64,000 nt of DNA from an uncultured Gammaproteobacteria bacterium. Lineage in GTDB: Bacteria > Patescibacteriota > Patescibacteriia > Magasanikbacterales > UBA922. How positions within the stretch are numbered: the stretch's first letter is position 1; the number at the start of each line of letters is the position of its first letter. Positions 45,443-64,000 of this stretch are shown here, one piece after another. Made by a program: the position numbers and the translations under genes. The notes beneath the pieces are model-generated. The model was given only the letters and a program-made list of their open reading frames with translations, was not told the DNA's origin and searched no databases. The DNA lies in contig CAYFPJ010000002.1 of NCBI GenBank assembly GCA_964344965.1, forward strand, positions 1,068 to 65,067. Reading direction: 5' to 3'.

Positions 45443-45443
45443 T

Positions 45444-48537: not shown

Positions 48538-49578
48538 TTAGACCTCAAAATCCAAACCATCAATCGAAGTCAGCATCTCCTTGATCTCATCAGTAGTCAT
48601 CAGCTGCTGATCTTTGGAAGAGTACTCTTTGAATTCAGCGCCTTTGGTGCCTGGATACTCAATAGATTTGATGTCATTAAAAATTTCATAACCCACATCG
48701 GGACGCAAAATATACATATCTTCTGTCTCAAGAGCATTTTCTGATTCAGCCAGGCTAAGCAGCTTCTCATGTTGTCTTTCACCAGCTCTCCGACCAATTA
48801 TCTTGGTCTCTATATCTTTTGGCAAATCATTTTTTTCCTTTACTATCTCTAGGACTGACTGCGCTAGGTCACCAATAGTTGCCACCGGCATCTTGAGAAT
48901 AAAAATCTCTTGACCTCTGGTCATGGTACTAGCCTTAAAAATGAGATCCACAGCTTGGTGAGTACTCATAAAAAATCTGGTCATATCTGCATCTGTCACA
49001 GTCACTGGTCCACCTTCCTTGATCTGTCTGATAAATAATGGCAAGACAGAACCACGAGAACCAAGGACATTACCAAAGCGAACCGAACAAAACTTGGTTT
49101 GCTTTTTTCCTTTATAAAAAAATGATGATAAGATTAATTTCTCTGCCAAAAGCTTGGTACAGCCCATCACATTGGTCGGATCAGCAGCCTTATCTGTGGA
49201 GATACTGACTACTTTGTCCACTTTGTTGGCAAAAGCACAAGAAATGATGTTTTGCACACCACCGACATTGGTCTTCACTGCCTCAAAAGGATTGAGTTCA
49301 CATGACACAACATGCTTGAGAGCCGCTGTATGAAAGACGATGTCTACATTTTCCATTGCCATCATCAGACGCTCCTTATCACGCACATCTCCAACCAAAA
49401 ATCTCATTCTAGGATCTCTGCCCAATCTATGTGCTAATTCAAACTGTTTGGTTTCATCACGACTGTAGACCCTCACCTGTCTGACACCAGCTTCGAGAAG
49501 CTGTCTTGTTATCTCCGAACCAATGGAGCCTGTACCTCCAGTTACCAAAACTGTTTTGTTTTTGAATTGTTCTTTCAT
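48538..49578 (-). CDS. UDP-N-acetylglucosamine 4,6-dehydratase (PseB/FlaA1/CapD family)
   Basis: VLVTGGTGSIGSE and the CapD-type extended SDR fold. Confidence 0.8.
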   Translation of the reverse strand: MKEQFKNKTVLVTGGTGSIGSEITRQLLEAGVRQVRVYSRDETKQFELAHRLGRDPRMRFLVGDVRDKERLMMAMENVDIVFHTAALKHVVSCELNPFEAVKTNVGGVQNIISCAFANKVDKVVSISTDKAADPTNVMGCTKLLAEKLILSSFFYKGKKQTKFCSVRFGNVLGSRGSVLPLFIRQIKEGGPVTVTDADMTRFFMSTHQAVDLIFKASTMTRGQEIFILKMPVATIGDLAQSVLEIVKEKNDLPKDIETKIIGRRAGERQHEKLLSLAESENALETEDMYILRPDVGYEIFNDIKSIEYPGTKGAEFKEYSSKDQQLMTTDEIKEMLTSIDGLDFEV

Positions 49579-49714
49579 ATAATTTTTAGTTTACCTTCTA
49601 GATATTACACATCCAGACCTGAAGGAGGAAAAATATATCTAATTGTTTGAGCGCCATTGCTTGCGACTCTTGGTTGGCGCCAAACAATTAGATATATTTT
49701 TACGACTGAAGTGG

Positions 49715-50578
49715 TTATTTATAAAAAATTAAATATTTTTGATACATTTTTTTAATCCCCAAGTCTAGATCATATTCCAAATCTTGTCCAATAATATTCT
49801 TCAATTTACTGCCATCTCCTATTACTGAAAATTTTTCAAAAACAGATTGGCCAAATCTATAATTTAATTTTTTGTATGTCACTTTTTCCACCAACCCAAT
49901 AAGATCCAAAATCGATACCCCCTCACCTGTACACAAATTGAAAACTTCGATTTTTTCCTTTTGGTCAAACTCTACAATAGCATTCAACAATCTTGATACA
50001 TCTCCCACAAATATATAATCCCTCACTTGTCCTCCATCACCATTGATAATAAATTGTTGATTACTGATCAATGCTAATAATATATAATTCAAAATTCCTT
50101 TATTTTTGACATCACCATAGACATTTGCCAATCTAGCTATACACAACTTTATATCATTCCTATCAACAAATTCTTTAAGCAATTTTTCTTCTTCATATTT
50201 TGCTTTTTCATAATCAGTCTTAGGTTCTGGCACCACTTCTTCATCATGTATTTGCGATGAATCTGGATAGACTAGTAAAGTGGATAAATATACGATCTTT
50301 TTCAAACCATTTGCTGATTCCAGAGCCATCATAATATTCCCCATCCGAACACTACTTGGCTGCACGGCTATCACCACCACTTCTATGTCATCCAAAATAT
50401 TTTTTAGCGACAAAAAATCATTATTTAAATCTATTTTTTGATAACAAACCCCTTCTATCGCTTCATTTTTAGATAATTCAGTAGCATGCACGGCTACCAC
50501 TTCTTTTCCACAATTCACCAAGTCACGACACAAATACCCACCGACAAATCCTGTACCACCTATCACAAGTACCTGCAT
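49715..50578 (-). CDS. NAD-dependent epimerase/dehydratase family protein
   Basis: VLVIGGTGFVGGYL Rossmann motif. Confidence 0.6.
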   Translation of the reverse strand: MQVLVIGGTGFVGGYLCRDLVNCGKEVVAVHATELSKNEAIEGVCYQKIDLNNDFLSLKNILDDIEVVVIAVQPSSVRMGNIMMALESANGLKKIVYLSTLLVYPDSSQIHDEEVVPEPKTDYEKAKYEEEKLLKEFVDRNDIKLCIARLANVYGDVKNKGILNYILLALISNQQFIINGDGGQVRDYIFVGDVSRLLNAIVEFDQKEKIEVFNLCTGEGVSILDLIGLVEKVTYKKLNYRFGQSVFEKFSVIGDGSKLKNIIGQDLEYDLDLGIKKMYQKYLIFYK

Positions 50579-50579
50579 A

Positions 50580-51731
50580 CTAATATGTTATTACTTTTTG
50601 GATTGGAGGAAGATCAATGGTTTCCAAAATCTCAACTATCTGCTTGGCTGTATTACCACGGTCATAAGGATTTTTTCCTTTTTTGACACTAGCGATAAAT
50701 TCCTCATCAGTCAAGGCCTTCACGATCCCCTTCTCAATAGCCTCTTGGTCGTTTGGCACATCAATCACATTGACCCCTCGTTCACGACGCTGCTGTCTGG
50801 TCCCTATATTGACAGTGGGTAGACCAAACGAAGGAGCCTCATGAATACCAGAACTAGAATTGCCAACCAAAACGTCAGCCACGTTCAACAGCCGTAAAAA
50901 ATCTTCATAAACTATGTGGGGCAAGACATGAATTCCTGCTTTTTTGATAGATTCAATTATTCTTCGACCGCCAGCATCGTGATTGGAATAAATGGCCAAA
51001 ACTTCCAAATCATGAGTCTCTTTCGTTTTTTTGATAGCAGCAATGCTTTTGTCTATTTGTTGTTCTACCTCTTCTACTTCAGTAGTAACCGGGTGTTGCA
51101 AAAATATAGCTAATTTTTTGGCCAGGTCAATGTCGTATTTCTTGCTAATATCCTCTTTGCTTGGATAATCTATTGATTTGATAGTATCAAGACTAGGACT
51201 ACCAACCAAAAATACATAGCTGGGGTCTTCTCCCAATTTTACAATTCTCTCCACACTTTGCTTGGTAGCAGCGAAATGAAGATGAGCAAACTTGGTACAA
51301 GCATGACGCAGTATTTCATCTATCGTGCCAGTAACTTCCCCACCCTGCATATGAGCAACATGGATATTCAAATGGGTGCCTGTGATAGCAGCAGCAAGAT
51401 GTGCCCCTAGATCAAATCCACAAAATACTATATCTGGCTTCAGCTTTGGGATAATGTCTGCCATGCCTATCAAGGCCTTACCCATAGCCCTAACCATCGA
51501 AGCACCATCATCCGGATCATCCTCTGCAAATATAGGAAGGGTGGCATCTATTTCAAAACCATCTTCCTTGACCACTTTTTCTGTTTCACCAAAATTTTTG
51601 AGAAGGTGAGCACCGGTGATAAGCAAAAGAAGCTCTAGCTCTTCGCTAGCCTGCACAGCTTTCATGATTGGCTTTAGTCTACTATAATCAGCTCGCCTCT
51701 CAGTAACAAATAAAATTCTTCTTTTAGACAT
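50580..51731 (-). CDS. neuC: UDP-N-acetylglucosamine 2-epimerase, hydrolysing (NeuC/LegG-like)
   Basis: Epimerase_2 fold with the typical HVEAGLRS-like (HVAHMQGGEV) and HPVT blocks. Confidence 0.8.
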   Translation of the reverse strand: MSKRRILFVTERRADYSRLKPIMKAVQASEELELLLLITGAHLLKNFGETEKVVKEDGFEIDATLPIFAEDDPDDGASMVRAMGKALIGMADIIPKLKPDIVFCGFDLGAHLAAAITGTHLNIHVAHMQGGEVTGTIDEILRHACTKFAHLHFAATKQSVERIVKLGEDPSYVFLVGSPSLDTIKSIDYPSKEDISKKYDIDLAKKLAIFLQHPVTTEVEEVEQQIDKSIAAIKKTKETHDLEVLAIYSNHDAGGRRIIESIKKAGIHVLPHIVYEDFLRLLNVADVLVGNSSSGIHEAPSFGLPTVNIGTRQQRRERGVNVIDVPNDQEAIEKGIVKALTDEEFIASVKKGKNPYDRGNTAKQIVEILETIDLPPIQKVITY

Positions 51732-51733
51732 AT

Positions 51734-52783
51734 TTATAAATCTATATCATTATATTTTAAATGTGTATCTATAGGGATGTCATTTCTTACGATCTTACCA
51801 AGCAACCCCTCATATTCTCCTGCCTTTATCTCTCCAGTACCCGGACGCTTCACCCAGATATTTTCTTTTGTTAATTTTTCGCCTTCTTTTATATCTTGTA
51901 TTGTCACTACAGTTGCAAAAGCAAAATCTATTGTCACTTGTTCCTCTTTGGCTGCTTCTTTTTTGCCACCACGCATCTTGAATATCTCTCCTGAATCAAA
52001 AATCAAATTCTCAAGAGCTTCAGGATCCATGGAGTTGACAATGTCTGGGCCAGGCCTATCCATACTATCTGTGAAATGCCTCTCGAGGATATCAGCTCCA
52101 AGAGCTGTAGCAGCCAAACAAGCCAAATTGGATACTGTGTGGTCGGACAATCCTACGACAGCATTGGAGAATTCTTTTTGCAATTCTTGCATCCCCCCTA
52201 GTCGAACTAAGTGCGGAGGCGTGGGGTAGAGATTGGTGGTGTGGAGAAGCGCATAAGGAACATTATATTTCTCTACTATTTCTACAGCCTTCTTGACGCT
52301 TGCTATATTATTCATGCCTGTACTTATGATCATGGGCTTACCAAACCCTGCAATGTGCTCGACAAGAGGATAATTATTGCACTCCCCTGATCCAATTTTA
52401 TAGGCAAGCACTCCCATTCGCTCCAGACGATCAGCTGCTGCTCTAGAAAATGGGGTACTAAGAAAAATCATCCCTTTTCCTTCTACATATTCTTTCAATT
52501 TTATTTCATCTTCTTCATTAAGAGCACATTTCTCCATGATGTCATAAATTGAATCTGTAGAATTGCCTGGGATAACTTTTTTGGCCTCTTTGCTCATCTC
52601 ATCCTCTATCACATGGGTCTGGTGCTTGATCACTTCTGCTCCAGCCTGATGTGCAGCATCGACAATGGCAAAAGCCACTTCCAAATCACCTTCATGATTG
52701 ATCCCAATATCGGGAATAACAAAAGTAGGAAAGTCTGGACCGATCTTCCTGTCTCCAATTTGAATGAAATTATTTTTTGGCAT
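51734..52783 (-). CDS. neuB: N-acetylneuraminate (nonulosonate) synthase, NeuB family
   Basis: [23 protein letters not shown], and the SDHT-like block (LSDHTVS), plus a C-terminal SAF domain. Confidence 0.85.
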
Positions 52784-52831
52784 AAAACAGCAATAGATTT
52801 CTCTCCAATTTTTATTTTAATAAAGTTAATA

Positions 52832-52902
52832 AATAGTAGGATATTTTTGTCAGCAACAGTCTGCTCCTTTTAGATTTTGATGGCTAAAATATCCTACTAT
52901 TT
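52832..52902. other. conserved-loop / variable-stem hairpin, copy 2
   Basis: Stem AATAGTAGGATATTT / AAATATCCTACTATT encloses TTGTCAGCAACAGTCTGCTCCTTTTAGATTTTGATGGCTAA. Confidence 0.7.
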
Positions 52903-52943
52903 ATTGATGGTCACAAAAATTAGTTAATGTTCATTATTAAAAT

Positions 52944-53942
52944 CTACAAATCTTTAAAGCCATCCAAAAAACCAAGGATACGTTCATCTTCCTGAAATGT
53001 ATACGGAAATTCTTTCTTTCCTTCTACAGCCTGGAGAAAATCACCAATCTCCGCTTCATACGCTTCTTCACCTGTATTGTATTGTCCCACCTTCTTCCCG
53101 CTGTCAAGATCAATTACCTCAGTATCTCCTTTTTCTGTACCAAAAATACTAATTTTTTTACCCAACCAATCCCAATCTATGGTCCCTTCTGTCCCAATTA
53201 TTTTCAAAGTTCTGCCAGCCTTTCTGTTTATGAGATCAATCATCATATTCCCCACTATACCATTTTCAAATTGTGCGGTGGCAGCATAAATATCATCTGC
53301 TGTCATTTCTAAATCTGATATTTTTCCACGCAAGCCGTAAACTTTCTTTACTGAACTACTGAACATGTCTATCAGCCAGACCAGCTCATAGGCAAACATC
53401 TCAGGACAACCCCCAGTATCCTTCTTGGCAAAGTAAACTTCTTTGTAATCTTCATACGGATGCCAATCTGGCAGATATTGCCCAAGATAATGATTAAAAG
53501 ACAGTGGCTTACCTATTCTTCCTGACAAAATTAACTCTTTAATTCTTTTGACAGCAGGAAAATAACGGAATGTACAAGACGGTGCTGCCACAAAATCATC
53601 ACCAAGCAAAGGATAAAGCTCTTGGTAACCGTCAGGCTTGGTAGTCACTTCTACAAAAAAATGCTTTTTCTTTTTGGCAATCTGTAAAAAATACTGATGA
53701 TGCAAATTTGGCGGAGTAGAAATGATGTAGGCATCTGGATTTATCTCTTGCTCTGCTTCTTCAAAATTTACAAAAGTTTTTATCCCGTATTCTTTGCCAA
53801 CCTCTGTACTTCTCTCTTCTGAAGGGTCAAACCCAAAAATCTGCTCCGCTGGAATTTGATGAAATTTCAAATTTCTAATGCGGCGCTTACCCATCGAACC
53901 AAGTCCAATGATAAGAAATTTTTTATCTGTTTTCACTGGCAT
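52944..53942 (-). CDS. Gfo/Idh/MocA-family oxidoreductase
   Basis: N-terminal KFLIIGLGSMGKRRIRNL Rossmann motif. Confidence 0.75.
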   Translation of the reverse strand: MPVKTDKKFLIIGLGSMGKRRIRNLKFHQIPAEQIFGFDPSEERSTEVGKEYGIKTFVNFEEAEQEINPDAYIISTPPNLHHQYFLQIAKKKKHFFVEVTTKPDGYQELYPLLGDDFVAAPSCTFRYFPAVKRIKELILSGRIGKPLSFNHYLGQYLPDWHPYEDYKEVYFAKKDTGGCPEMFAYELVWLIDMFSSSVKKVYGLRGKISDLEMTADDIYAATAQFENGIVGNMMIDLINRKAGRTLKIIGTEGTIDWDWLGKKISIFGTEKGDTEVIDLDSGKKVGQYNTGEEAYEAEIGDFLQAVEGKKEFPYTFQEDERILGFLDGFKDL

Positions 53943-54873
53943 ATTTCTTTAAATCTTCTATTATTTCTACATCGTGTATTGCCTCATCTACGTTGGAAAA
54001 GTAATCACCCTTTTGGAGAGAATCTATAAAAAAATCAATCTCTCTCTCATACATATTGTTGCGTTCCAGTTCTATTTTTTCACTCAAAATAACACTCTCA
54101 TGATTCTTGACAACAATCGTATTGTTATCGCTATTCCAGACTAGAGTACCCTGGTCCCCAGCTATCTCCAAATATCTACCATAGGGAACGCGGATATAAT
54201 CTTGGTGAATTGATACTATCACTCCAGAATCACTAACTAAAACACTCTCTGCACAATCCTCAGTATCTATCTCCAAACTTGAAATTTTGTCTAGATAACA
54301 AATTTTGGCTTGCAACTTTTCTCCCAATAGCCAGGCCGGATAGTTTATTTCATGCACTAAGTCAAGCATTACTCCCCCGCCATCATCCTTACTAGATGAA
54401 TAACACTGGCGATAATCTCGCTCTCTCCACTGGAGCAAATCCTGTCCAACTGAAACGCGCATATAATAAATACGACCCAAAATTTTATCCTTCAAAATTT
54501 TCTTAATGTGGAGAAATGGTTCAAAAAAATGAAAATTATAAGCTACCCAAGAACTAATTTCTTTTTGCTTCATTTCTTCCGCCAGCTCTGTCAACATTTT
54601 GATGTTATTTGAAAGAGGCTTTTCAATCAACAGTGCTTTTGGATTGAGCTTAATACATTTTTCAATTGTTTCCACGTGCTTCGATGTCTCGTTGGTAATA
54701 AAAAATGCGTCAAAAGGACCATGCTTGGCTAGCTCATCCCAAGAAGAGACAGTTGTAATGTTTGACAAATCAGTTCGCTTGGATAAAACAACAGTATCGA
54801 CATCTTTATAAAACTGCAAATTCTCTAGATGCCTTTTTCCAATTGAACCAAATCCAATTATGCCAATTTTCAT
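53923..54873 (-). CDS. Gfo/Idh/MocA-family oxidoreductase
   Basis: N-terminal MKIGIIGFGSIGKRHLENL. Confidence 0.75.
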   Translation of the reverse strand: MKIGIIGFGSIGKRHLENLQFYKDVDTVVLSKRTDLSNITTVSSWDELAKHGPFDAFFITNETSKHVETIEKCIKLNPKALLIEKPLSNNIKMLTELAEEMKQKEISSWVAYNFHFFEPFLHIKKILKDKILGRIYYMRVSVGQDLLQWRERDYRQCYSSSKDDGGGVMLDLVHEINYPAWLLGEKLQAKICYLDKISSLEIDTEDCAESVLVSDSGVIVSIHQDYIRVPYGRYLEIAGDQGTLVWNSDNNTIVVKNHESVILSEKIELERNNMYEREIDFFIDSLQKGDYFSNVDEAIHDVEIIEDLKKYASENR

Positions 54874-55619
54874 AGACCTTTTTTTTCTTGTTCTAATTCT
54901 AGAATTCTATCTTTCATTTTTTCTTTATTTTGATAAAAAAGCTCAGCCATGGCCCACTCTTCTGGATCATCTAGGTCAACCGAACGCCATTTTGGACAAA
55001 CCACTGCTTTGGTCTTCTTGGTAATCACCAATTTTTCTTTCAATAAAGCTCCCATCTCAATGATATAAACAAAACAACCATTTAGTAGATAGGCCTTCTC
55101 CCAAGTCTGTGTATTATTAGAATGTGTCTCTAATCCATTGACAAGAACTGTGTCATTTTCTGTGCTAAGATGATATAGCTTAGGATGAGTCGGGCAGACT
55201 GTCAAAACTGTTGTGGCATCAGTGTCTTGCATCATCTGCCAACAATCTTCAATATCTTTAATTTCTCGCAAAAGAGAAGTGGTTTGTAAAATCATCAAAT
55301 GTGTCGGCTCATATCCTTCATCATTTTTTAATTTTTCCAAAGTATAGAGAATACTGTCGACGACATTGGCACTATCCGATGCCAAATGTTCAGGACGCAA
55401 AAATGGTACATCTGCTCCATACTTTTTTGCCACCTTAGCGATCTCTTCTGAATCAGTGTCTACGACTACTCTATCGATAAATGGCACGGACAAAGCCTGC
55501 TCAATAGCATAAGCAATCAAAGGTTTACCCAAAAAATCCTTGATATTTTTACCAGGAATTCTTTTGGAGCCAGCCCGAGCTGGGATGTAGGCTAGTATAC
55601 GCTGCTCTTTCTTATCCAT
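54870..55619 (-). CDS. neuA: CMP-nonulosonate synthetase (acylneuraminate cytidylyltransferase, NeuA family)
   Basis: LAYIPARAGSKRIPGKNIKDFLGKPLIAYAIE. Confidence 0.8.
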   Translation of the reverse strand: MDKKEQRILAYIPARAGSKRIPGKNIKDFLGKPLIAYAIEQALSVPFIDRVVVDTDSEEIAKVAKKYGADVPFLRPEHLASDSANVVDSILYTLEKLKNDEGYEPTHLMILQTTSLLREIKDIEDCWQMMQDTDATTVLTVCPTHPKLYHLSTENDTVLVNGLETHSNNTQTWEKAYLLNGCFVYIIEMGALLKEKLVITKKTKAVVCPKWRSVDLDDPEEWAMAELFYQNKEKMKDRILELEQEKKGL

Positions 55620-55620
55620 A

Positions 55621-56655
55621 TTATTCTAAATCTTCTTTAAGAATATGTTCGCCATTTTTAATATTTCTTTTTACTTTTTTGTCAACCAAAGTGTCAAATT
55701 CTTCGATAGATATATGCCCATCTTCAGGCCGATATGGACGAATAGACATAAGATCATCTGGCTCGAGCACTGATCCGACTGACAAATCTTTGTGTGCACA
55801 AATTGCCTTATGAGCCCAAGTCTTGTATTGCAATACTTCATCATCAATCTGATAATTTCTAGTTATTTGATAAATCTCATCTACATCTGCTAGCATCTTT
55901 TTGAACTGATCTGGAACAATACCAACTGAAATATCAAGACTCTCAAATTTTGGTTTGACCTTATGTTCTGGAAGACAGATATGCTTTTCCATAATCGTCA
56001 CTTCCTCCATGCCTGCTGCTACCAAGATAGCATTGGTCCCAGCCACATGATCAGAATACCCAAAGTTAAATTCTGGAAATTTGGACTTCATTTTCTCGAT
56101 CAACCTCAAATTGGCCAGACGTGGCGGTGTTGGATAAATGGTTGTACAGTGAAATATAATTAACTGATCAGCGTAATTTTGGTATTTTTCTAAAACCCGC
56201 ATTACTTCTTCTTCTTGCAAAAGACCAAGAGAAAGTAAAACTGGCTTGCCTGTGCCAAGAGCCATATCTATCATTCGATAGTTATTGCTATCACCAGACC
56301 CAATTTTTAAGACTGGCATCCCAGCTTCGGCTAGCTCTACCAAATCATACTCATTGTGGGTAGTAGCAAAACAAGTGATTCCTTTTTCTTTCCCATACTT
56401 CATGATTTCAAGAAAATCACTTTTACTCAACGCTCTTTGACTAAGACGCTCTCGCCAATGAACGTCTATCTCACTAACTACATTTTCTGGAGTAATACTT
56501 TGGAATTTTAAAAGTCTAATACCCGCCTTTATGGCTTCATCTACGAATTTTAAACCTACTTCTTTTTCACCAAATGTCAAAACACCAGCCTCTGCGATTA
56601 CTTCTGGTTTTTTGTTTGATCCAACTATAATACCCCTATCTAATTCTATATTCAT
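55621..56655 (-). CDS. NeuB-family nonulosonate synthase, second paralog
   Basis: KIGSGDSNNY, YSDHVAG, and a C-terminal SAF domain. Confidence 0.75.
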   Translation of the reverse strand: MNIELDRGIIVGSNKKPEVIAEAGVLTFGEKEVGLKFVDEAIKAGIRLLKFQSITPENVVSEIDVHWRERLSQRALSKSDFLEIMKYGKEKGITCFATTHNEYDLVELAEAGMPVLKIGSGDSNNYRMIDMALGTGKPVLLSLGLLQEEEVMRVLEKYQNYADQLIIFHCTTIYPTPPRLANLRLIEKMKSKFPEFNFGYSDHVAGTNAILVAAGMEEVTIMEKHICLPEHKVKPKFESLDISVGIVPDQFKKMLADVDEIYQITRNYQIDDEVLQYKTWAHKAICAHKDLSVGSVLEPDDLMSIRPYRPEDGHISIEEFDTLVDKKVKRNIKNGEHILKEDLE

Positions 56656-56823: not shown

Positions 56824-57996
56824 TTATTTCTTCTGCTCCCACTTTATTTTTGGAGTAATAGTATCTTTATTAATATTATCCCTGTAATCCATAATCTTCT
56901 TCAACATACTATCCACCAATACATCAGACAATTTATTTGGCTTCAGCCCAAGATCCAACAACTTGGTGTGCACAGGATTAAAGTAATGCTCTTCTGCTTC
57001 TTTGCGAGGATTTTCAATATGCTCAATTCTCGGATTCAACCCAAGCTTTTGTCCGGCACTTTGAACCATTTCTGCCAATTCTTTGACAGAAAATAACTCT
57101 GTAAACTGGTTGTAAATTCTAAATTCCCCCCTATCTGCAGGATTCATAGCGGCAATTTCAACACATTGCAAGGTGTCTACAATATTTAAGTATCCTCTAG
57201 TCTGCCCACCTTTACCGTAAGGAGTAATCGGCATATCAGCCACAGCCTGGACACAAAAACGATTAAGAGCAGTCCCGAATACTGCATCATAATGTAAGCT
57301 GGTGGCCAGACGCTCATCTTTTTTTGTTTCTTCGGTCTCAATACCATAGACAATACCCTGATTCAAATCTGTAGCTCTGAGATCCCAAATCTTACAGGCA
57401 AAATAAATATTGTTACTATCATGCACTTTAGATAAGTGATAAAAAGAACCTGGATTTTTTGGGAAAAGCATCCGATCAGTCCTTCCTTTGTGCTCAATAT
57501 CAATGTACCCTTCTTCAATATCAATATTTGGTGTACCGTACTCTCCCATGGTTCCAAGCTTTACCAGATGAGCATCTGGACAATTTCTCTTCATGGCAAA
57601 CAAGACGTTTAGAGTGCCCATGACATTATTCATCTGAGTGTTGACAGCAGTAGAATTGGTCATCATGGAGTAAGGAGCTGAGGGCTGTTCACCATAGTGA
57701 ACAATGACATCAGGCATGAATTGGACAATAAACTTATTGACAAACCTCTTGTTCAATAGATCTCCAATGTATGGAGTGATTGTCTTTCCGGAAACTTCTT
57801 TCCAAACTTTTATTCTTTCGTGCAATGTAGATATTGGGATAAGAGGCTCTACCCCTTCTTCCAGTTCCCACTTTCGTTTGTTAAAATTATCTACTACAGC
57901 CACTTCATGACCTTTGTTTGAAAAGTACATTGCTGTTGGCCATCCCAGATAACCATCTCCTCCCAAAATAAGAATCTTCATATATTCAATATACAA
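56824..57996 (-). CDS. sqdB: UDP-sulfoquinovose synthase (SqdB/SQD1)
   Basis: Near-colinear match to plant/cyanobacterial SQD1. Shared blocks include ILGGDGYLGW (SQD1 GGDGYCGW), HYGEQPSAPYSM, HLVKLGTMGEYGTPNIDIEEGYI, FYHLSKVHDS, ATDLNQG, AVFGTALNRFCVQA and PYGKGGQTRGYL. Confidence 0.85.
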   Translation of the reverse strand: MYIEYMKILILGGDGYLGWPTAMYFSNKGHEVAVVDNFNKRKWELEEGVEPLIPISTLHERIKVWKEVSGKTITPYIGDLLNKRFVNKFIVQFMPDVIVHYGEQPSAPYSMMTNSTAVNTQMNNVMGTLNVLFAMKRNCPDAHLVKLGTMGEYGTPNIDIEEGYIDIEHKGRTDRMLFPKNPGSFYHLSKVHDSNNIYFACKIWDLRATDLNQGIVYGIETEETKKDERLATSLHYDAVFGTALNRFCVQAVADMPITPYGKGGQTRGYLNIVDTLQCVEIAAMNPADRGEFRIYNQFTELFSVKELAEMVQSAGQKLGLNPRIEHIENPRKEAEEHYFNPVHTKLLDLGLKPNKLSDVLVDSMLKKIMDYRDNINKDTITPKIKWEQKK

Positions 57997-58009
57997 AATA
58001 GTAATTAAA

Positions 58010-59287
58010 TTAATTAGTTTTTTTTTCTACATCACAAATGACTCCACAAGCTACAGTATTATTACTCATCTCATCGATCAAAATGAAATTGCCAGTATTT
58101 TTGTTTTCACTATATTTGTCAAACAACAAAGGATTGCGTGCGGAAATAGAAACAGCACATATATCATTTATATACATACTATTTCCACCAGATTTTTTTT
58201 CCAAACTATCAACATCTAGGTAATAATAAATATTGTCTACACAGCATCTTTGTGTCTGTGTGGTATGCTTTATCAAATAGCTTCTTTCCAGTTTTTGCAT
58301 TGGCTCTTTGTCAAACCAAAATAATAACGCATCAATTCTCTTATTTATTTTCGGGCTATTAGAATTCTTGACTATCATATCTCCCCTACTGACATCCACT
58401 TCCTCTGTCAATGTCAATACGACAGATTCAGGGTCAGATGCTTCTTCCTTTTCTCTATCAGCTACAAAAATAGACTTGACATGTGTACTAGTGCCAGATG
58501 GTAATATAGTGACTTGGTCACCTTTTTTTATAGACCCTCCCCCTACTTTACCAGCATAGCCTCTCCAGCTTCCTTCTCCTCTCACCACGTATTGAACCGG
58601 AAAACGAAATACATCAAGGTTACCTTGTGTTGAATGAGGTACGTCTTCCAAGAACTCCAAGACGGTCTTACCGCTAAACCAATTCATATTTTCACCACGG
58701 TTGACTACCATATCGCCTTTAAGAGCTGACACTGGGATGAAGTCAACATCTTCAACACCTAAACCAGAGAGATAGATAAGGAAGTCTTTTTTTACTTTAT
58801 CAAAAGCAAATTGGTCATATTGTACCATATCCATCTTATTTATCAATATCACTATGTGCTTTACACCTAGACTAGCTGCAATGTAGATGTGCCTCTTTGA
58901 TTGCTTTGTTACGCCCTTCTTTACATCAATCAAAAATAAGGCGACATCAGCACGAGATGCTCCAGTAGCCATATTTCTAGTATATTGTTCATGACCAGGA
59001 ACATCCGCCACTATAATCCTTCTTTTTGGGGTGTTTAGGTATCTGTAAGCCACATCTATTGTAATTCCCTGTTCACGCTCAGCAGATAAGCCGTCGGTAA
59101 ATAGAGAAAAATCTATATCTTCACTCGCCCCTCTAGTGCTATCCTTTTTTAATTTAGAAAGTTGATCTTCATATATTGCCCCACAATCAAAAAACAATCG
59201 GCCTATCAAAGTTGATTTACCATCATCGACACTGCCTGAAGTCGCTATCCTCAAAAGTTCTGAATTTTGTGCATCTTTTATGTGCAT
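58010..59287 (-). CDS. cysN: sulfate adenylyltransferase subunit 1 (GTPase; not fused to an APS-kinase domain)
   Basis: ATSGSVDDGKSTLIGRL, DVPGHEQY, and the NKMD G4 motif. Confidence 0.85.
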   Translation of the reverse strand: MHIKDAQNSELLRIATSGSVDDGKSTLIGRLFFDCGAIYEDQLSKLKKDSTRGASEDIDFSLFTDGLSAEREQGITIDVAYRYLNTPKRRIIVADVPGHEQYTRNMATGASRADVALFLIDVKKGVTKQSKRHIYIAASLGVKHIVILINKMDMVQYDQFAFDKVKKDFLIYLSGLGVEDVDFIPVSALKGDMVVNRGENMNWFSGKTVLEFLEDVPHSTQGNLDVFRFPVQYVVRGEGSWRGYAGKVGGGSIKKGDQVTILPSGTSTHVKSIFVADREKEEASDPESVVLTLTEEVDVSRGDMIVKNSNSPKINKRIDALLFWFDKEPMQKLERSYLIKHTTQTQRCCVDNIYYYLDVDSLEKKSGGNSMYINDICAVSISARNPLLFDKYSENKNTGNFILIDEMSNNTVACGVICDVEKKTN

Positions 59288-59299
59288 ATTTATTTTATA

Positions 59300-59542
59300 T
59301 TACTCTTCTTTTGCCACTCCCCAATCTATGCTATTCCAAAACCGTTCATGACCATAATAAAGGATCATCTTGAAGAAAACCTCAATAGACCCAATACTAA
59401 AAGCAATAAGAAAGTCTTTTGTCAATAAATAAGAAATTGTTACTGTTGCCAAAGTAGCAATGATTCTCCAACTGATTGTTTTAGTGAAAGTTCTAATCTG
59501 TTTTTCTTTTTTACTCATATTTTTTTGGTTACTCGCGATCAT
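59300..59542 (-). CDS. DUF2061-family small membrane protein
   Basis: 80 aa with two TM segments; this family is typically encoded in sulfate-activation loci. Confidence 0.45.
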   Translation of the reverse strand: MIASNQKNMSKKEKQIRTFTKTISWRIIATLATVTISYLLTKDFLIAFSIGSIEVFFKMILYYGHERFWNSIDWGVAKEE

Positions 59543-59688
59543 TATTACACTGAAGAGGAGCGGAACAAAGTATTATTCCTTTTTTACCTGACCACTGTGT
59601 GAGTCAAAGCGAGTTTGGTAAGGTAAAAAAGGAATAATACTTTGTGGAGTGAAAAAATCCTGTAAATACAATGAATATTTACAAATAT

Positions 59689-60591
59689 TCAAAAATATCC
59701 TTCCTTTTTCTTTTGTTCCATCGAAGATGATGAGCCGTGATCAATAGCTCTCGTCTCTCTTTCAGAATTTTTTGCCAGATACAATTCTTCAATAATGCCA
59801 TCTATGGTCGTAGCCAAAGAAGGTACACATCCAGTCGATGGCGAACAACCCAGAGTCCTGTAGCGAAACATATCTTCTATAATTTCTTCATCACCAGCTT
59901 TGACATATTTATCAAGACGTAAGTATACTCCTCTTTTTTTGATAACTCTTTGTTTTTTGGAAAAATAAAGAGGAACTATTTCGATATTTTCTTTTTTTAT
60001 ATATTCCCAAATGTCTACCTCTGTCCAGTCTGAAAGTGGGAAAACTCTCATCGATTGCCCCTCATGCAGGCGAGAATTATAAAGATGCCAGAGCTCTGGT
60101 CGTTGATTCTTAGGATCCCACACTCCCCCCTCACCACGAACAGAGAAAATTCTTTCCTTAGCTCTTGATTTTTCTTCATCTCTTCTCGCACCACCAAAAG
60201 CTAGATCAAAATTATGTATATCAAGTGCTTCCAGGAGGGGTTTGGTTTTTTTGTAATATATGTACTCCTCTGTATGAGCTTGTTCTGGATTCATGTTCAT
60301 AGCTATCACTTCCTCATTTTTATGGACTATGAGATCTACTCCTATTTTTTTGGTATAGTAATCTCGAAATTCAATCATCTCTGGAAATTTATAACCTGTG
60401 TCTATATGAAGAAGAGGAAAAGGAATCTTACCAGGATAAAATGCTTTTTGCACTAATCTAAGCAATACTGAAGAATCCTTCCCTATCGAATAAAGTAAGA
60501 CTGGATTCTTACATTCGGCCACTGCTTCACGAATGATAAAAATACTTTCCATCTCAAGTTGTTCCAAATAACTCAAACTACGCTGTGACAT
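59689..60591 (-). CDS. cysD: sulfate adenylyltransferase subunit 2 (the track ORF extends to 60654; the likely start is MSQRS at 60591)
   Basis: Collinear with E. coli CysD (LEQLEMESIFIIREAV...LYSIGKDSSVLL...FGGARRDEEKSRAKERI...KKKEGYF). Confidence 0.9.
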   Translation of the reverse strand: MSQRSLSYLEQLEMESIFIIREAVAECKNPVLLYSIGKDSSVLLRLVQKAFYPGKIPFPLLHIDTGYKFPEMIEFRDYYTKKIGVDLIVHKNEEVIAMNMNPEQAHTEEYIYYKKTKPLLEALDIHNFDLAFGGARRDEEKSRAKERIFSVRGEGGVWDPKNQRPELWHLYNSRLHEGQSMRVFPLSDWTEVDIWEYIKKENIEIVPLYFSKKQRVIKKRGVYLRLDKYVKAGDEEIIEDMFRYRTLGCSPSTGCVPSLATTIDGIIEELYLAKNSERETRAIDHGSSSSMEQKKKEGYF

Positions 60592-60595
60592 AAAA

Positions 60596-61252
60596 TTATC
60601 TAGTATGTAAACCACATTCACTAGTGGTATCATTTGTATTATGAAAACGACCAAACCTCTCTTCGCTGGTGTTACTTTTCTTTGTGCATGGCTGACAACC
60701 TAAAGATGGATAGCCTTGATCATATAGTGGATGATAGCTGAGATTTCTTTCCTTTATGTATTGCCAGATATCATCTTTGGTCCAAAAAACAATTGGGTTT
60801 ATCTTGGTGATATCTTCTTCTACTTCTGTAATTTCTGTATCCTTGCGACTTTCTGCCTCATCTCTTCGCAGACCAGTAACCCAACTATCATGTGCTTCAA
60901 TTACTGGTTTTATAGCTGGTTTTTTCATAGCACAACACTTGTACTTTCCATCCTTGATCATCTCATCACCAAAAGAATTCTCAATATCTTCTTTTTCTTC
61001 TGGAGTTGGTCTAATCCATTTAAAGTTCATGCCTGTTTCTTGTACTAGCTGGTCTGCAAAATCTAGTGTCTCTTTGAATTCATAGCCTGTATCAATTCCA
61101 ACAAAATTCGCTTGGGGGTCGACACTCATTACCAAATCTACAATCACTCTTGAATCTTTACCAAAAGAACAAGTAACAAAAACTTTCTTATTTTCTTCAA
61201 ATAGATCTTTGATAATTGTTTTACTTTGTTTGATCTTTTCGGCAAGTTTCAT
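60596..61252 (-). CDS. cysH: APS-reductase-type phosphoadenosine phosphosulfate reductase family protein (Fe-S type)
   Basis: PAPS_reduct fold (FGKDS), C-terminal ECGLH, and the Cys pairs KCCAMK and GCQPC that characterise APS rather than PAPS reductases. Confidence 0.8.
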   Translation of the reverse strand: MKLAEKIKQSKTIIKDLFEENKKVFVTCSFGKDSRVIVDLVMSVDPQANFVGIDTGYEFKETLDFADQLVQETGMNFKWIRPTPEEKEDIENSFGDEMIKDGKYKCCAMKKPAIKPVIEAHDSWVTGLRRDEAESRKDTEITEVEEDITKINPIVFWTKDDIWQYIKERNLSYHPLYDQGYPSLGCQPCTKKSNTSEERFGRFHNTNDTTSECGLHTR

Positions 61253-61255
61253 AAT

Positions 61256-61969
61256 TTATGTGTTATTGTTCTTTTGTCTATATTCCAAAAAAATTTTTAT
61301 CGAATCAAGATCCTCTGGATAATCAACATCCATTGAGTAAAATTGATCTATTACTAAAGGATAGTTTCTTTTACCTTCCATTTTCTTTTCACTAGTCAGT
61401 GTCTCGAAACTAGACAACCAGAGGTTGGCTGCTTTATAAAATTTTGGCTTTTGCTTATTTTCTACATTTTGGTAATGAAGTTCGTCTTGCCAAAAGACAA
61501 TCGTACCATCTTCTTTGATCTCTCGAATATTATAAGGATGATTCAAGGTATCCACTTCTGATACTGCCACTACTGAGTCTGCTTTTTTGTCTATAGCTAG
61601 ACTCACCGCTGTGTCAATCTGCTTGGTGTCGATAAGAGGTGAAGCAGCTTGTAACAAAATTACATAGTCGGCTTTATAACCTTCGTCTTTTTCCAATTTT
61701 TCGACAGTATAAACCATGGTATCAATGACTGGACTATCATCTCTAGCCAACTCTGCTGGGCGTATAAATGGTACATCTGCTCCATGCTCTTTCGCAACTC
61801 TAGCAATTTCATCATCATCAGTAGAGACAATGACGCGATCAACCAATGAAGATTTTTTGGCTGCTTCAATTGACCAAGTCAAAAGAGGTTTGCCTTGCAA
61901 CAAAGCTAGGTTTTTACCAGGAAACCTTTTACTACCCCCTCGTGCCGGGATTATTACCACTACATTCAT
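61256..61969 (-). CDS. NeuA-family cytidylyltransferase, second paralog
   Basis: VVIIPARGGSKRFPGKNLALLQGKPLLTWSIE. Confidence 0.75.
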   Translation of the reverse strand: MNVVVIIPARGGSKRFPGKNLALLQGKPLLTWSIEAAKKSSLVDRVIVSTDDDEIARVAKEHGADVPFIRPAELARDDSPVIDTMVYTVEKLEKDEGYKADYVILLQAASPLIDTKQIDTAVSLAIDKKADSVVAVSEVDTLNHPYNIREIKEDGTIVFWQDELHYQNVENKQKPKFYKAANLWLSSFETLTSEKKMEGKRNYPLVIDQFYSMDVDYPEDLDSIKIFLEYRQKNNNT

Positions 61970-61978
61970 ATATTCAAA

Positions 61979-62980
61979 TTATTTTTGAGCGATAAATCTC
62001 AATTTTAGACCAATACCAAGTTCATTCATTTTGTTTTCCAATATCTTTTCATTTTCAGGATCCAATATAAAATCCCTGAATTTTTTTGGCAAAAAATCAT
62101 ATATTTCATCACCAAAGGGATCCAAAAATTGAAAACTATTAATCATTGAATCCTTCCCTGTATAGCATGTGTTCACTTCAATATTTTCATTCTTCCAACC
62201 AAGATTTGAGAATAAGTATCTCAAAGTATCTTCTGAAAAATAGGAAAGATGCAGACGGCCAGTAAATGTACGAGACATTTCATGTAGTGTCATACAGACA
62301 AGACTCTGTACATTAGGGCAAATTCCCAAAAATATTCCACCTGGCTTTAAAATACGATAAATATCTTTGACGACATCAATCGGTTCAGGCAAATGTTCGA
62401 TCACACCAAACATAGTGACAAGATCAAAACTATTATCCTCAAAACCACACTCATGCAACAATTTTCTCTCTACCTTTACTCCATACATCTCTTCAGCATA
62501 CTTAGCAGTCCTTTCATTTAGCTCCAGACCAAGTGTGTCATAACCCCTCTCTTTGGCTGTGTGCAAAAATCCTCCCACGGAACATCCGATATCAAGCACT
62601 CTGCCAGATGGAACCTGATCTTGAATTTTGTCTAAAAAATAATTATATAATTTACCTCTAATCTCCTGATGCTTTTCAGACGATAAAAAATCAAAACCAG
62701 CATCATTGGTGTCAGATTCTTCATTGTACTGCTTTACTACCGCTTCTTCATTAGCTTGGGGATTGACATAGACATGTGCACAATTACTACAACGCACAAA
62801 ATCAAAGCCATTTTTTGTAAAAAGCACAGTGAAATTTGGTGAATGACAAAGTAAACAATTTATTTTTTTTACCAAGTGTTCAAAGACCTTACCAGTCTTT
62901 GGGTCAACTAGTTTGTCCAATTCTTTATCACGTTCTTCAAAAAATCTTTCTCCTTTTGTCTGTTTATCAAATGTACTCAT
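61979..62980 (-). CDS. class-I SAM-dependent methyltransferase with an N-terminal Cys4 zinc-ribbon
   Basis: CLLCHS...CSNCAH ribbon, then VLDIGCSVGGF motif I and LKPGG. Confidence 0.65.
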   Translation of the reverse strand: MSTFDKQTKGERFFEERDKELDKLVDPKTGKVFEHLVKKINCLLCHSPNFTVLFTKNGFDFVRCSNCAHVYVNPQANEEAVVKQYNEESDTNDAGFDFLSSEKHQEIRGKLYNYFLDKIQDQVPSGRVLDIGCSVGGFLHTAKERGYDTLGLELNERTAKYAEEMYGVKVERKLLHECGFEDNSFDLVTMFGVIEHLPEPIDVVKDIYRILKPGGIFLGICPNVQSLVCMTLHEMSRTFTGRLHLSYFSEDTLRYLFSNLGWKNENIEVNTCYTGKDSMINSFQFLDPFGDEIYDFLPKKFRDFILDPENEKILENKMNELGIGLKLRFIAQK

Positions 62981-62990
62981 ACGTATAAAA

Positions 62991-64000
62991 TTAATAAGTT
63001 ATTCTTTTGCGTAAAAGTTTTTTGTTTATTTCTAATTTTTTAATAATTTTTATAATTTGTTCCGAGACATCACCTTCTCCAAGGCGATTACCGCACTTGC
63101 CCAATCCTTTTATATAACCACTGTCTTTCAACACAAAGTGTATTTTCTTTACTATATCTTCTTTGTCAGCCAAGGCATCAACCACATTCTTTTCTCTTGC
63201 TCTACCAAGTTGCCTATTACCAATATTTATTGCTGGCAACCTGAGGTAAGGAGCCTCCACCAATGCACATGATGAATTGCCTATCAAAAACTGGGCATTA
63301 TCAAGAAGACTCAAAAAATCCAGATGCTCAATATTTTTATAGATCAAAAACTGTGGATCATCCTGTACTTCTTCTATGGCATTGACCACTTTTTCATACC
63401 CAGGATCTGAGCATGGGTATATAATGAAAGCTCTATTTTCTGATGACGATTTGACCGCCTCGATGATGGAGTGCATGTATTCTCCATTCTTATCTGGGGA
63501 CTCAAATGTGTCTGGATGGGTCAGTATTATACTATATTTTTCGCCTTTTTTCAAGCCGTATTTAGGTGCTATTTTTTCGATGGTTGGGTACATTTTTTTG
63601 ACAATTCTATCTATATATAGAGATCCTACGGTATGAATACGCCATTTTTCTTCTCCCATTTTTTTTATTCTTTCTGTTGAATCATCTGATTCAGGAAAGT
63701 GTAGGTGGGCTAGCTTGGTAATGGCATGTCTCTGAATATCATCTATATTTCCAGATACATCACCACCTTGGGTGTGAGCAATAACAACACCCAGATTAAG
63801 AGCAGCAAGAGCCATCACCAGGTGCTCCCCCCTATCCCCGTGAACAAAAAGGATGTCTGGACTTAATTCAGATAATAATTTTGCAGATTTTTGGAGACAG
63901 ACGCCAAGATTTTCTGTACGTGCAATCGGTGAGTCGACTCGTCCAGCTCCCATTTCAATAATTTCTAATGTAGAATTTGGGAAGAGCGATTGCGCTTCTT
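62991..64000 (-). CDS. hydrolysing UDP-GlcNAc 2-epimerase (NeuC-like), second paralog, N-terminus beyond the window edge
   Basis: Epimerase_2 C-terminal blocks (HTQGGDVSG, HPDTF). The in-frame reading continues upstream of the listed Met to coordinate 64000. Confidence 0.7.
   Translation of the reverse strand, partial: EAQSLFPNSTLEIIEMGAGRVDSPIARTENLGVCLQKSAKLLSELSPDILFVHGDRGEHLVMALAALNLGVVIAHTQGGDVSGNIDDIQRHAITKLAHLHFPESDDSTERIKKMGEEKWRIHTVGSLYIDRIVKKMYPTIEKIAPKYGLKKGEKYSIILTHPDTFESPDKNGEYMHSIIEAVKSSSENRAFIIYPCSDPGYEKVVNAIEEVQDDPQFLIYKNIEHLDFLSLLDNAQFLIGNSSCALVEAPYLRLPAINIGNRQLGRAREKNVVDALADKEDIVKKIHFVLKDSGYIKGLGKCGNRLGEGDVSEQIIKIIKKLEINKKLLRKRITY

Follow-up and report, generated by a model that had tools for sequence, protein, structure and literature searches.

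A candidate route to a C9-sulfonated nonulosonic acid in a surface-glycan locus of Candidatus Magasanikbacteria

Nonulosonic acids (NulOs) shape how microbial surfaces are recognized by hosts, phages, and lectins. The pathway to CMP-N-acetylneuraminic acid (CMP-Neu5Ac) of Neisseria meningitidis (SiaA/SiaC/SiaB) consists of a hydrolysing 2-epimerase, condensation with phosphoenolpyruvate (PEP), and activation with CTP. The pathways to legionaminic acid (Leg; LegB/C/H/G/I/F) and pseudaminic acid (Pse; PseB/C/H/G/I/F) begin by oxidizing a nucleotide-linked N-acetylhexosamine (HexNAc) at C4 and dehydrating it across C5-C6, chemistry that is also used by the UDP-sulfoquinovose synthases of plants (SQD1), cyanobacteria (SqdB), and Sulfolobus (Agl3), which require sulfite and serve the synthesis of sulfoquinovosyl diacylglycerol or of archaeal N-glycans. 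Sulfoquinovose is a major organic-sulfur pool. Genes of both kinds are found together in the DNA described here, a stretch of 64,000 nucleotides (the window) from contig CAYFPJ010000002.1 of assembly GCA_964344965.1, in which 16 genes between positions 48538 and 64000, all on the minus strand and either overlapping or separated by short gaps (window gene calls with Pfam and NCBIfam scans), include two sets of NeuC, NeuB, and NeuA genes. The array, read from 64000 down to 48538, is best explained as part of a surface-glycan locus of Candidatus Magasanikbacteria (Patescibacteria, or candidate phyla radiation [CPR]) with two separate NulO routes. A serine hydroxymethyltransferase encoded in the window shares 87% identity with proteins of Candidatus Magasanikbacteria.

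Both sets share with the CMP-Neu5Ac pathway the hydrolysing 2-epimerase, the condensation with PEP, and the CTP activation. Set 1 resembles a bona fide member of that pathway, and the NeuB of set 2 (NeuB2) shares with the described NeuB its fold and its catalytic, metal, and PEP residues. Set 2 departs from the described pathway in that its NulO steps are preceded by an SQD1-type synthase and a source of sulfite, the Asn74 loop is missing from its NeuB, where Trp, Arg, and His are invariant instead, and its NeuC has gained two arginines. The SQD1 homolog of the window is full length and retains the catalytic residues of the described UDP-sulfoquinovose synthases, whose need for sulfite it would share, the sulfite coming here from adjacent cysDNH genes. 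It differs from them in having Pro in place of Arg101 and in lying among NeuC, NeuB, and NeuA genes with no SqdX/SQD2-type or Agl16-type transferase as a neighbor, and we propose that its product is not a glycosyl donor but a precursor of a nine-carbon sugar.

The Leg and Pse pathways likewise proceed through a hydrolysing epimerase, a homolog of NeuB, and a CMP-transferase, and often come with Gfo/Idh/MocA (GFO) oxidoreductases and methyltransferases as accessories. The window lacks the LegC-type aminotransferase and the LegH-type N-acetyltransferase, as well as PseC, PseH, and the UDP-sugar hydrolase PseG; both of its epimerases are of the NeuC type, and matches to the PseB, PseI, and PseF models stay below cutoff. 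In the Leg and Pse pathways the enone is reduced and transaminated to give a 9-deoxy, 7-acetamido sugar, whereas in the route proposed here sulfite would trap the enone to give a C9 sulfonate with a hydroxyl at C7.

More distantly, the animal Neu5Ac-9-phosphate/Kdn-9-phosphate synthase (NANS) and the KDO8P and DAH7P synthases belong to the same superfamily as NeuB2 and take an aldose with a terminal anionic group; in KDO8P synthase, the beta2-alpha2 loop selects the phosphosugar. NANS has Asp for the catalytic Glu134, a feature common only to the NeuB2 subclade, the sister SQD1-linked subclades keeping Glu (PMC8208679). It does not have Arg314, which is kept in NeuB2, and its 9-phosphate can be cleaved by a phosphatase, whereas a sulfonate would stay in place; by sequence the proteins are not closely related. 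In the ElaA/ElaB/ElaC system of Acinetobacter baumannii KL49, a CMP-transferase gene is directly followed by genes for NAD(P)-dependent oxidoreductases, one of them of the Gfo/Idh/MocA family. The order of the second NeuA (NeuA_J) and the two GFO genes (GFO_K and GFO_L) of the window is similar, a likeness of gene arrangement and not of compared sequences, but the two oxidoreductases are both GFO-type and have no short-chain dehydrogenase/reductase (SDR) partner.

A sulfoquinovose synthase homolog and sulfite genes among nonulosonic acid genes

The initial annotation of the array listed two NeuC-like, two NeuB-like, and two NeuA-like genes together with a PseB-like dehydratase, a further SDR (287 amino acids), two GFO oxidoreductases, and a Cys4-ribbon methyltransferase. 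Family scans found every one of these on the minus strand, but five genes had been missed: those for CysH, CysD, a DUF2061 protein, CysN, and a third SDR that is a homolog of SQD1. This SDR of 385 amino acids (56824 to 57981) matches Arabidopsis SQD1 (PDB 1QRR) with 518 bits, residues 7-387 on 3-383; against the family model NF041015, a strict one, it scores 479 bits over its full length, under the cutoff of 575. The roles of the active-site residues, including the catalytic Thr145, Tyr182, and Lys186, have been described (PMC4388408). In an alignment with the homologs from four related loci (L005, L007, L009, and L010), T145, M146, E148, Y149, Y182, H183, and K186 are kept in all of them and in the window protein. 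No glycosyltransferase adjoins the gene; a GT4 family gene at 33628 to 34806 matches BshA/MshA-type models weakly.

Directly upstream of the SQD1 homolog are the genes for the two subunits of sulfate adenylyltransferase and for a thioredoxin-dependent reductase. CysN (58010 to 59287), the GTPase subunit, has no fused adenosine phosphosulfate (APS) kinase and scores 508 bits against TIGR02034 (cutoff, 336), and the small subunit CysD (59689 to 60633) exceeds the cutoffs of both NF003587 (433 bits) and TIGR02039 (416 bits). CysH (60596 to 61252; PAPS_reduct domain, 188 bits to PRK02090) carries the motifs KYKCC, LGCQPC, and ECGLH, and its Fe-S motifs (CC, CxxC, and ECGLH) indicate the APS reductase type. 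No gene for an APS kinase was found in the cluster. The three enzymes thus constitute a minimal route from sulfate through APS to sulfite, placed immediately ahead of an enzyme that has sulfite as a cosubstrate, and from this context the SQD1 homolog is predicted to use the sulfite that its neighbors supply.

The remaining genes of set 2 surround this module. NeuB2 (55621 to 56655; NeuB and SAF domains), a divergent PEP-condensing synthase, lies next to the SQD1 homolog. On the other side of the module, beyond CysH, are NeuA2 (61256 to 61969; CTP_transf_3, 113 bits), a SAM-dependent methyltransferase (61979 to 62980; Methyltransf_23/11/25) with an N-terminal Cys4 zinc ribbon (CLLC...CSNC), and NeuC2 (62991 to 64000; Epimerase_2), a hydrolysing-type UDP-sugar 2-epimerase. 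The NeuC2 frame is open up to base 64000, with its 5' end (about 65 codons) outside the window. A public contig (L001), identical to the window over 10.9 kb (0 mismatches) and reaching 8,980 bases past its edge, encodes the full protein of 388 amino acids (8824 to 9990 of that contig), so that NeuC2 is neither a pseudogene nor shortened at its N terminus, as had been considered, but is cut only by the window edge. Against TIGR03568 (cutoff, 236), the partial protein scores 283 bits and the full one 327 bits, compared with 106 bits for wecB, and among PDB entries it is closest to the hydrolysing epimerase 5ZLR. NeuA2 scores 149 bits against the PseF model, below the cutoff of 206; its orthologs (46 to 63% identical) lie beside SQD1 in L005, L007, L009, L010, L014, L016, and L019. 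Orthologs of the methyltransferase (41 to 67% identical) occupy the same position in L005, L014, L016, and L019, and in five loci the ortholog stands between NeuC and NeuA or just ahead of NeuA.

With moderate confidence, set 2 (the SQD1 homolog, NeuC2, NeuB2, NeuA2, and the methyltransferase) is proposed to make a CMP-activated 9-deoxy-9-sulfo-nonulosonic acid, and set 1 a Neu5Ac-type sugar. We infer each reaction, the order of the steps, and the product from sequence. CysD and CysN would convert sulfate to APS, which the Fe-S-type CysH would reduce to sulfite. The SQD1 homolog would then oxidize C4 of a UDP-hexose, dehydrate C5-C6, and add sulfite to C6, yielding a UDP-6-deoxy-6-sulfo-hexose from which NeuC2 would eliminate UDP, followed by rehydration with inversion at C2, to release a 6-sulfo-manno sugar. 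Condensation of the latter with PEP by NeuB2 would give a 9-deoxy-9-sulfo-non-2-ulosonic acid with a Neu5Ac-like or Kdn-like skeleton, which the zinc-ribbon methyltransferase might methylate, NeuA2 would convert to the CMP-activated donor, and a TagB-like transferase encoded just past the window edge would place on the glycan. The methyltransferase is predicted from its sequence and position to act by O-methylation as a tailoring step; the methylated product suggested in the initial annotation is plausible in this respect, given the recurrence of the gene near NeuC and NeuA.

Two substrates come into consideration for the SQD1 homolog, UDP-Glc and UDP-GlcNAc. The retention in NeuB2 of Arg314 and of an aromatic residue at position 288, and the fact that all known NeuC chemistry takes place on 2-acetamido sugars, favor the N-acetylated sugar, whereas the close resemblance of the window protein to UDP-Glc-specific enzymes favors UDP-Glc. 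The exchange of Arg101 for Pro was considered as a determinant for UDP-GlcNAc and rejected: Pro occupies this site in 122 of 125 close bacterial homologs of SQD1 regardless of gene context, including those in exopolysaccharide (EPS) loci that have no NulO genes.

SQD1-linked NeuB and NeuC clades in other loci

SQD1 homologs adjoin NeuB in 16 independent loci with GC contents of 31 to 65% (the window, L005, L007, L009, L010, L014, L015, L016, L019, L021, L022, L025, L030, L045, L060, and L099). These loci almost always have NeuC and NeuA as well, and both were found wherever the contig reaches far enough. The SQD1 orthologs of the 15 other loci are 55 to 77% identical to that of the window. In L014 and L015, which hold its closest CPR relatives, SQD1 is flanked by NeuC, NeuB, NeuA, and CysD/N/H; the three cys genes occur again in L016, and CysH alone lies between NeuC and SQD1 in L007. 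All NeuB2 relatives with readable context (L005, L007, L009, L010, and L016) have orthologs of SQD1, NeuC2, and NeuA2 adjacent to them, usually with a TagB-like gene, and contigs of matching length point to two additional cases. In a set of 80 metagenomic SQD1 loci, seven contain NeuB and NeuC, six of these also NeuA, and contigs of 57 to 65% GC are among them; the commonest gene order is NeuB-NeuC-(2-hydroxyacid dehydrogenase)-NeuA-SQD1. The minimal operon, NeuB-NeuC-NeuA-SQD1, is that of L060, and a variant adds the 2-hydroxyacid dehydrogenase. The other 73 metagenomic loci, like Acidobacteriota-like and Thermodesulfobacteriota contigs, have SQD1 homologs and no NulO gene, so that the SQD1 family is a general one, which has been put to a separate use where it is linked to NulO genes. 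A second, conventional NulO set is present in the majority of the long loci (the window, L005, L007, L009, L010, L015, L016, and L030); the SQD1-linked set is therefore not just "the" sialic acid set.

In the N. meningitidis enzyme (NmNeuB), Asn74 on the beta2-alpha2 loop contacts the C6 hydroxyl of N-acetylmannosamine (ManNAc), Arg314 contacts the N-acetyl carbonyl, Phe288 is part of the wall of the acetyl pocket, and Phe112 is close to the ligand (PMC11339185, PMC6795526). Fifteen of the 16 NeuBs that lie next to SQD1 fall into one superclade, made up of three subclades whose mutual identity is just 28 to 36%. In the superclade the beta2-alpha2 loop is about 9 to 13 residues shorter and lacks Asn74, and W79, R82, H112, and W288 (NmNeuB numbering) are common to all members, while the catalytic, metal, and PEP residues and Arg314 are unchanged. 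The second-set NeuBs of the same loci do not combine the four-residue signature with the short loop. NeuB2 itself reaches 168 bits against TIGR03569 (cutoff, 400). It keeps E25, K53, Q55, K129, E/D134, Y186, S213, H215, E234, H236, D247, and R314; all 16 aligned sequences of its clade have lost the loop with Asn74, and W67, R70, and H100 (NeuB2 numbering) and the Trp at NmNeuB position 288 are invariant in the clade. Its AlphaFold2 model (pLDDT, 94.3) has the TIM-barrel and SAF fold, with a TM score of 0.90 to NmNeuB (1XUU). Among 5.8 billion proteins, 15 relatives of NeuB2 have 47 to 64% identity and the next match 32%; the clade forms one cluster among 1.84 billion 50%-identity representatives, and a profile search of a genome collection found it in just two species representatives, both Parcubacteria/Paceibacterota, which indicates that the strict clade is rare.

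A search of the 50%-identity representatives with the NeuB2 profile provided a blind prediction. The full NeuB signature was present in 26 of the 149 top representatives, and P0324, which was chosen by this signature alone, has as neighbors a NeuA and, with 58% identity and 466 bits, a homolog of SQD1; the prediction of SQD1 from the NeuB signature was thus successful. The epimerases show a parallel pattern, 13 of the 14 SQD1-linked NeuCs falling into one clade with at least seven private residues, two arginines (R80 and R173) among them. For the NeuAs a signature analysis was set aside as too thin, the linked proteins forming two clades with two or three shared positions and only four sequences being available for comparison. 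Gene identities, conserved catalytic residues, synteny, and NeuB and NeuC clade signatures that track SQD1 are what is observed in these loci. On this basis it is rather probable that Patescibacteria and some unrelated bacteria of up to 65% GC make a C9-sulfonated NulO by way of a dedicated NeuC/NeuB/NeuA set that is fed by SQD1 from a private sulfite branch.

Several observations weigh against a sulfonated product of set 2. Arg101, which is present in plant SQD1 and essential in Sulfolobus Agl3, where the R101A mutant is inactive (PMC4388408), is Pro in the window homolog. The latter is also not distinguishable from relatives of 59 to 67% identity in EPS loci that have GT4 and GT2 genes and no NeuB, so that its product can also be transferred directly, and the window has a GT4 and a GT2 gene about 21 to 23 kb away. 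In the window, translational coupling connects NeuB2 with NeuA_J and the GFO genes, so that the two routes do not divide cleanly among the genes. The SQD1-adjacent NeuB of L021 lacks the signature, the NeuC of L060 is outside the SQD1-linked clade, the NeuB and NeuC trees are neighbor-joining trees without support values, and a position of the new Arg and His of NeuB2 near the C6 pocket is predicted from sequence. To our knowledge, no NeuC-type enzyme takes a 6-sulfo or 2-hydroxy sugar. In the literature searched, which largely excluded subscription journals, neither a natural sulfonated NulO nor a link between SQD1 and NeuB was found; the sulfonated NulOs reported there are synthetic "sulfo-sialic" analogues in which the sulfonate replaces the carboxylate. 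An unassigned CMP-NulO mass of 333.106 in a 2026 preprint was considered as sulfo-Kdn and dismissed, as the mass defect does not fit.

Alternatively, CysDNH and the SQD1 homolog might make UDP-sulfoquinovose for direct transfer by a glycosyltransferase and NeuC2, NeuB2, and NeuA2, independently of them, an ordinary NulO without a sulfonate, the genes being linked solely through the entry of both sugars into one conserved glycan. Close SQD1 homologs do lie among GT4 and GT2 genes without NeuB, most metagenomic SQD1 loci (73 of 80) have no NulO genes, the window has its own GT4 and GT2 genes, and NeuC2, NeuB2, and NeuA2 would suffice for a Neu5Ac-type pathway, for which NeuB2 retains the N-acetyl contacts R314 and the aromatic residue at 288. 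Two separate pathways would, however, leave unexplained why the NeuBs and NeuCs next to SQD1 form clades of their own, in which NeuB has lost the loop that contacts the C6 hydroxyl and gained an Arg and a His. They would not account for the compact operons of L060 and L045, which have no glycosyltransferase for sulfoquinovose, for the second conventional NulO set in the loci, or for the SQD1 gene beside P0324, a protein picked by its signature only. Direct transfer of sulfoquinovose next to an ordinary NulO is for these reasons an unlikely explanation of the array.

If set 2 does make the sulfonated sugar, the product would be new to the glycan alphabet and the first nonulosonic acid in nature with a C-sulfonate, and a nucleotide sugar of the sulfoquinovose type would for the first time serve as an intermediate instead of a glycosyl donor. 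With two negative charges and a sulfonate that sulfatases could not remove, the sugar would stably mimic sialic acid that is 9-O-sulfated or 9-phosphorylated. CPR episymbionts with reduced genomes would in that case spend sulfate-activation genes on surface decoration and not on cysteine synthesis. The NeuB signature (short beta2-alpha2 loop, W79, R82, H112, and W288) can be used as a marker for such loci. At least one current untargeted pipeline for CMP-sugars excludes compositions that contain both N and S, so that a CMP-activated, N-acetylated sulfo-NulO would be missed by it (bioRxiv 10.64898/2026.04.20.719630).

The conventional gene set and its possible products

The genes of set 1 are NeuC1 (50580 to 51731), NeuB1 (51734 to 52783), and NeuA_J (54870 to 55619; CTP_transf_3). 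NeuB1 is 61% identical to NmNeuB and clusters with it, apart from the Leg-type NeuB of L015; its score against TIGR03569 is 381 bits (cutoff, 400). It has the same residues at N74, F112, N184, Y186, F288, and R314, with a conservative change from Glu to Asp at position 25. NeuC1, a hydrolysing UDP-GlcNAc 2-epimerase, scores 391 bits against TIGR03568 (cutoff, 236), compared with 100 bits for the WecB model, and lies outside the SQD1-linked NeuC clade. NeuA_J (168 bits to the PseF model, below cutoff) clusters with the NeuAs of set 1. The ManNAc contacts of NeuB1 are identical, and NeuC1 is clearly a hydrolysing epimerase; together with NeuA_J the two suffice for CMP-Neu5Ac. On this sequence evidence the best reading of set 1 is that it yields Neu5Ac or a variant of it tailored by redox chemistry.

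An aminotransferase is never required for the synthesis of Neu5Ac. The initial annotation had noted the lack of an aminotransferase and an N-acetyltransferase in the array and had suggested on this ground an unusual, possibly methylated or non-aminated product or, alternatively, two different NulO sugars. The absence is real: neither Pfam nor tblastn with queries from a related locus (E < 0.1) revealed a DegT-type aminotransferase or a hexapeptide acetyltransferase in the 64-kb window or in the stretch of 8,980 bases of L001 past its edge, where their presence would have indicated a canonical Leg or Pse pathway. Loss of amination is nevertheless not by itself what makes the array unusual. NeuB1 resembles a Neu5Ac synthase, and the genes of set 2 are associated with a module that generates sulfite and with an SQD1 homolog, both of which had been overlooked; this points to a sulfonated NulO. 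The suggestion of two different sugars agrees with the results, the NeuB, NeuC, and NeuA paralogs belonging to different clades and the sets recurring as separate modules in related loci.

Two GFO oxidoreductases may modify the product of set 1 by oxidation and reduction. GFO_K (53923 to 54873; Pfam GFO_IDH_MocA and C-terminal domains) and GFO_L (52944 to 53942; Pfam) have weak, generic matches to PDB sequences (at most 54 bits; Escherichia coli YjhC, 31 bits), and an ortholog of GFO_L with 52% identity lies beside the canonical Leg-type set of L015. Gaps or overlaps of 1 to 20 bases around NeuA_J couple it translationally to NeuB2 upstream and to GFO_K downstream. In Acinetobacter, the Gfo/Idh/MocA protein ElaA and a reductase epimerize C8 of CMP-Leg (PMC13656337); by analogy, the trio NeuA_J-GFO_K-GFO_L may be a similar module that activates and then epimerizes, and GFO_K is predicted to act in redox tailoring of the NulO or CMP-NulO.

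The array ends with a PseB/FnlA/PglF-like UDP-GlcNAc 4,6-dehydratase (48538 to 49578; Polysacc_synt_2, 347 bits) and the SDR of 287 amino acids (SDR287; 49715 to 50578), an Epimerase family protein (99 bits) with GGTGFVGG and YEKAK motifs. The dehydratase scores 327 bits against the PseB model (cutoff, 408) and 272 bits against FnlA (cutoff, 730). SDR287 is predicted to be a 4-ketoreductase that acts after it. A dehydratase and a 4-reductase form the standard two-gene route to UDP-N-acetylquinovosamine (UDP-QuiNAc) or UDP-N-acetylfucosamine (UDP-FucNAc). The resulting UDP-6-deoxy-HexNAc might be a building block of the glycan or feed a 9-deoxy, 7-hydroxy NulO, the latter in line with the non-aminated product suggested at first.

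In its full form this second option would have the dehydratase, SDR287, NeuC1, and NeuB1 make a non-aminated 5-acetamido-3,5,9-trideoxy-nonulosonic acid of the fusaminic acid type, with a ketoreductase replacing aminotransferase and acetyltransferase. Fusaminic acid shows that 9-deoxy, 7-hydroxy NulOs occur in nature. The order NeuC1-SDR287-dehydratase mirrors the NeuC-Hexapep-DegT-dehydratase order of L015, SDR287 standing at the position of Hexapep and DegT; the dehydratases of the two loci are 45% identical, GFO_L is 52% identical to the GFO protein of L015, only 1 base lies between NeuC1 and SDR287, and neither the window nor the 8,980 bases past its edge encode an aminotransferase. Against this, NeuB1 keeps Asn74, which hydrogen-bonds a C6 hydroxyl that a 6-deoxy substrate would not have (PMC11339185), and it groups with meningococcal Neu5Ac synthase and not with the Leg-type NeuB of L015. 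UDP-QuiNAc or UDP-FucNAc would moreover be an equally good destination for the dehydratase product, such sugars being a common first sugar for priming transferases like the one encoded at 40567 to 41967. A 9-deoxy product of set 1 is accordingly doubtful, and Neu5Ac or its redox-tailored variant stays the preferred assignment.

Ordinary assimilatory sulfate reduction for cysteine, with cysH-cysD-cysN in a glycan locus by chance and the SDR a generic dehydratase/epimerase, is very improbable: CysD, CysN, and CysH are standard assimilatory enzymes, and a sulfite reductase could be encoded elsewhere in the genome, of which only part was covered, but no sulfite reductase or cysteine synthase was found in the 64-kb window and 9 kb beyond, the SQD1-NulO cassettes of L014, L015, and L016 contain the cys genes again, CysN and CysH being fused in two of the three, L007 has CysH alone, and the SDR is a full-length SQD1 homolog (518 bits).

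Flanking genes and variation among the cassettes

Upstream of NeuC2, L001 encodes first a TagB/Glyphos_transf-like protein of 458 amino acids (7446 to 8822 of that contig), then a sulfatase family protein, and further upstream two proteins with no family match, an Fe-alcohol dehydrogenase, a phosphonopyruvate decarboxylase, a cytidylyltransferase-PEP mutase fusion, and a GT2. The TagB-like protein scores 55 bits against NF046086 (cutoff, 200), a weak match to the Tanf_01245/BFO_1060 family of T. forsythia, and its match to Pfam Glyphos_transf is faint; the Pse and Leg transferases of Tannerella forsythia are TagB-like proteins (PMC5420450). Positions 1 to 7282 of L001, directly upstream of the NulO genes, hold a phosphonate module with the PEP mutase fusion (TIGR02320, 405 bits) and the phosphonopyruvate decarboxylase (425 bits). 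The Fe-alcohol dehydrogenase, the two proteins with no family match (88 and 376 amino acids), the sulfatase family protein (513 amino acids), and the GT2 belong to the same stretch. The same glycan may therefore carry a (hydroxyethyl)phosphonate group as well.

At the other end, genes on the two strands converge, ending at 48417 (plus strand) and 48538 (minus strand). Between them is a bidirectional terminator-like hairpin (48427 to 48459) whose perfect stem of 14 to 15 bp is followed by T runs on each strand; it closes the array and is probably a terminator for both genes. Beyond it, the rest of the glycan locus extends over 33628 to 46835, with the GT4 gene (33628 to 34806), a PpgS-like GT2 (35176 to 35835), an SDR (35963 to 36973), a subtilase (36981 to 39005), a 520-amino-acid protein with no family match (39015 to 40577), and the EPS priming transferase (40567 to 41967, plus strand). 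These are followed by a TviC-like epimerase (42231 to 43166), a TviB-like UDP-GlcNAc 6-dehydrogenase (43154 to 44458), and a UDP-Glc dehydrogenase-like protein (45444 to 46835). The TviB-like, TviC-like, and UDP-Glc dehydrogenase-like genes, together with the priming transferase, GT4, and GT2, suggest a heavily anionic surface glycan.

The SQD1-NulO cassettes vary in their accessory genes. The gene for a small membrane protein of 80 amino acids (59300 to 59542; DUF2061, PF09834, 75.6 bits) is wedged between cysD and cysN in the window and in its own contigs L001 and L002 and absent from the cassettes of L014, L015, and L016; the start codon of cysD is uncertain, the gene calls in L001 and L002 giving 314 or 300 amino acids. 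Fusions of CysN with APS reductase (655 to 663 amino acids) lie inside the cassettes of L015 (13170 to 15137) and L016 (14542 to 16533). On the 1.03-Mb CPR contig of L014, the SQD1-NeuB pair is followed, at 12219 to 17731, by a sulfotransferase, an APS kinase, a fusion of pyruvate kinase, ATP sulfurylase, and APS kinase, and a CysQ-like phosphatase, genes that indicate a separate 3'-phosphoadenosine 5'-phosphosulfate branch for O-sulfation beside the sulfite branch.

Other cassettes contain, instead of the two GFO oxidoreductases of the window, a D-isomer-specific 2-hydroxyacid dehydrogenase, typically encoded between NeuC and NeuA (L007, 9043 to 9999; L022, 5217 to 6233; L025, 6350 to 7273; L030, 6185 to 7171; L045, 2832 to 3779). 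A GalE-like SDR is encoded directly upstream of SQD1 in L015 (9060 to 10004), L019 (6948 to 7880), and L021 (1405 to 2778) and could supply the UDP-sugar or 4-epimerize it. In L005 (11062 to 13314), the NeuB and NeuC of the second NulO set are fused into one protein of 750 amino acids.

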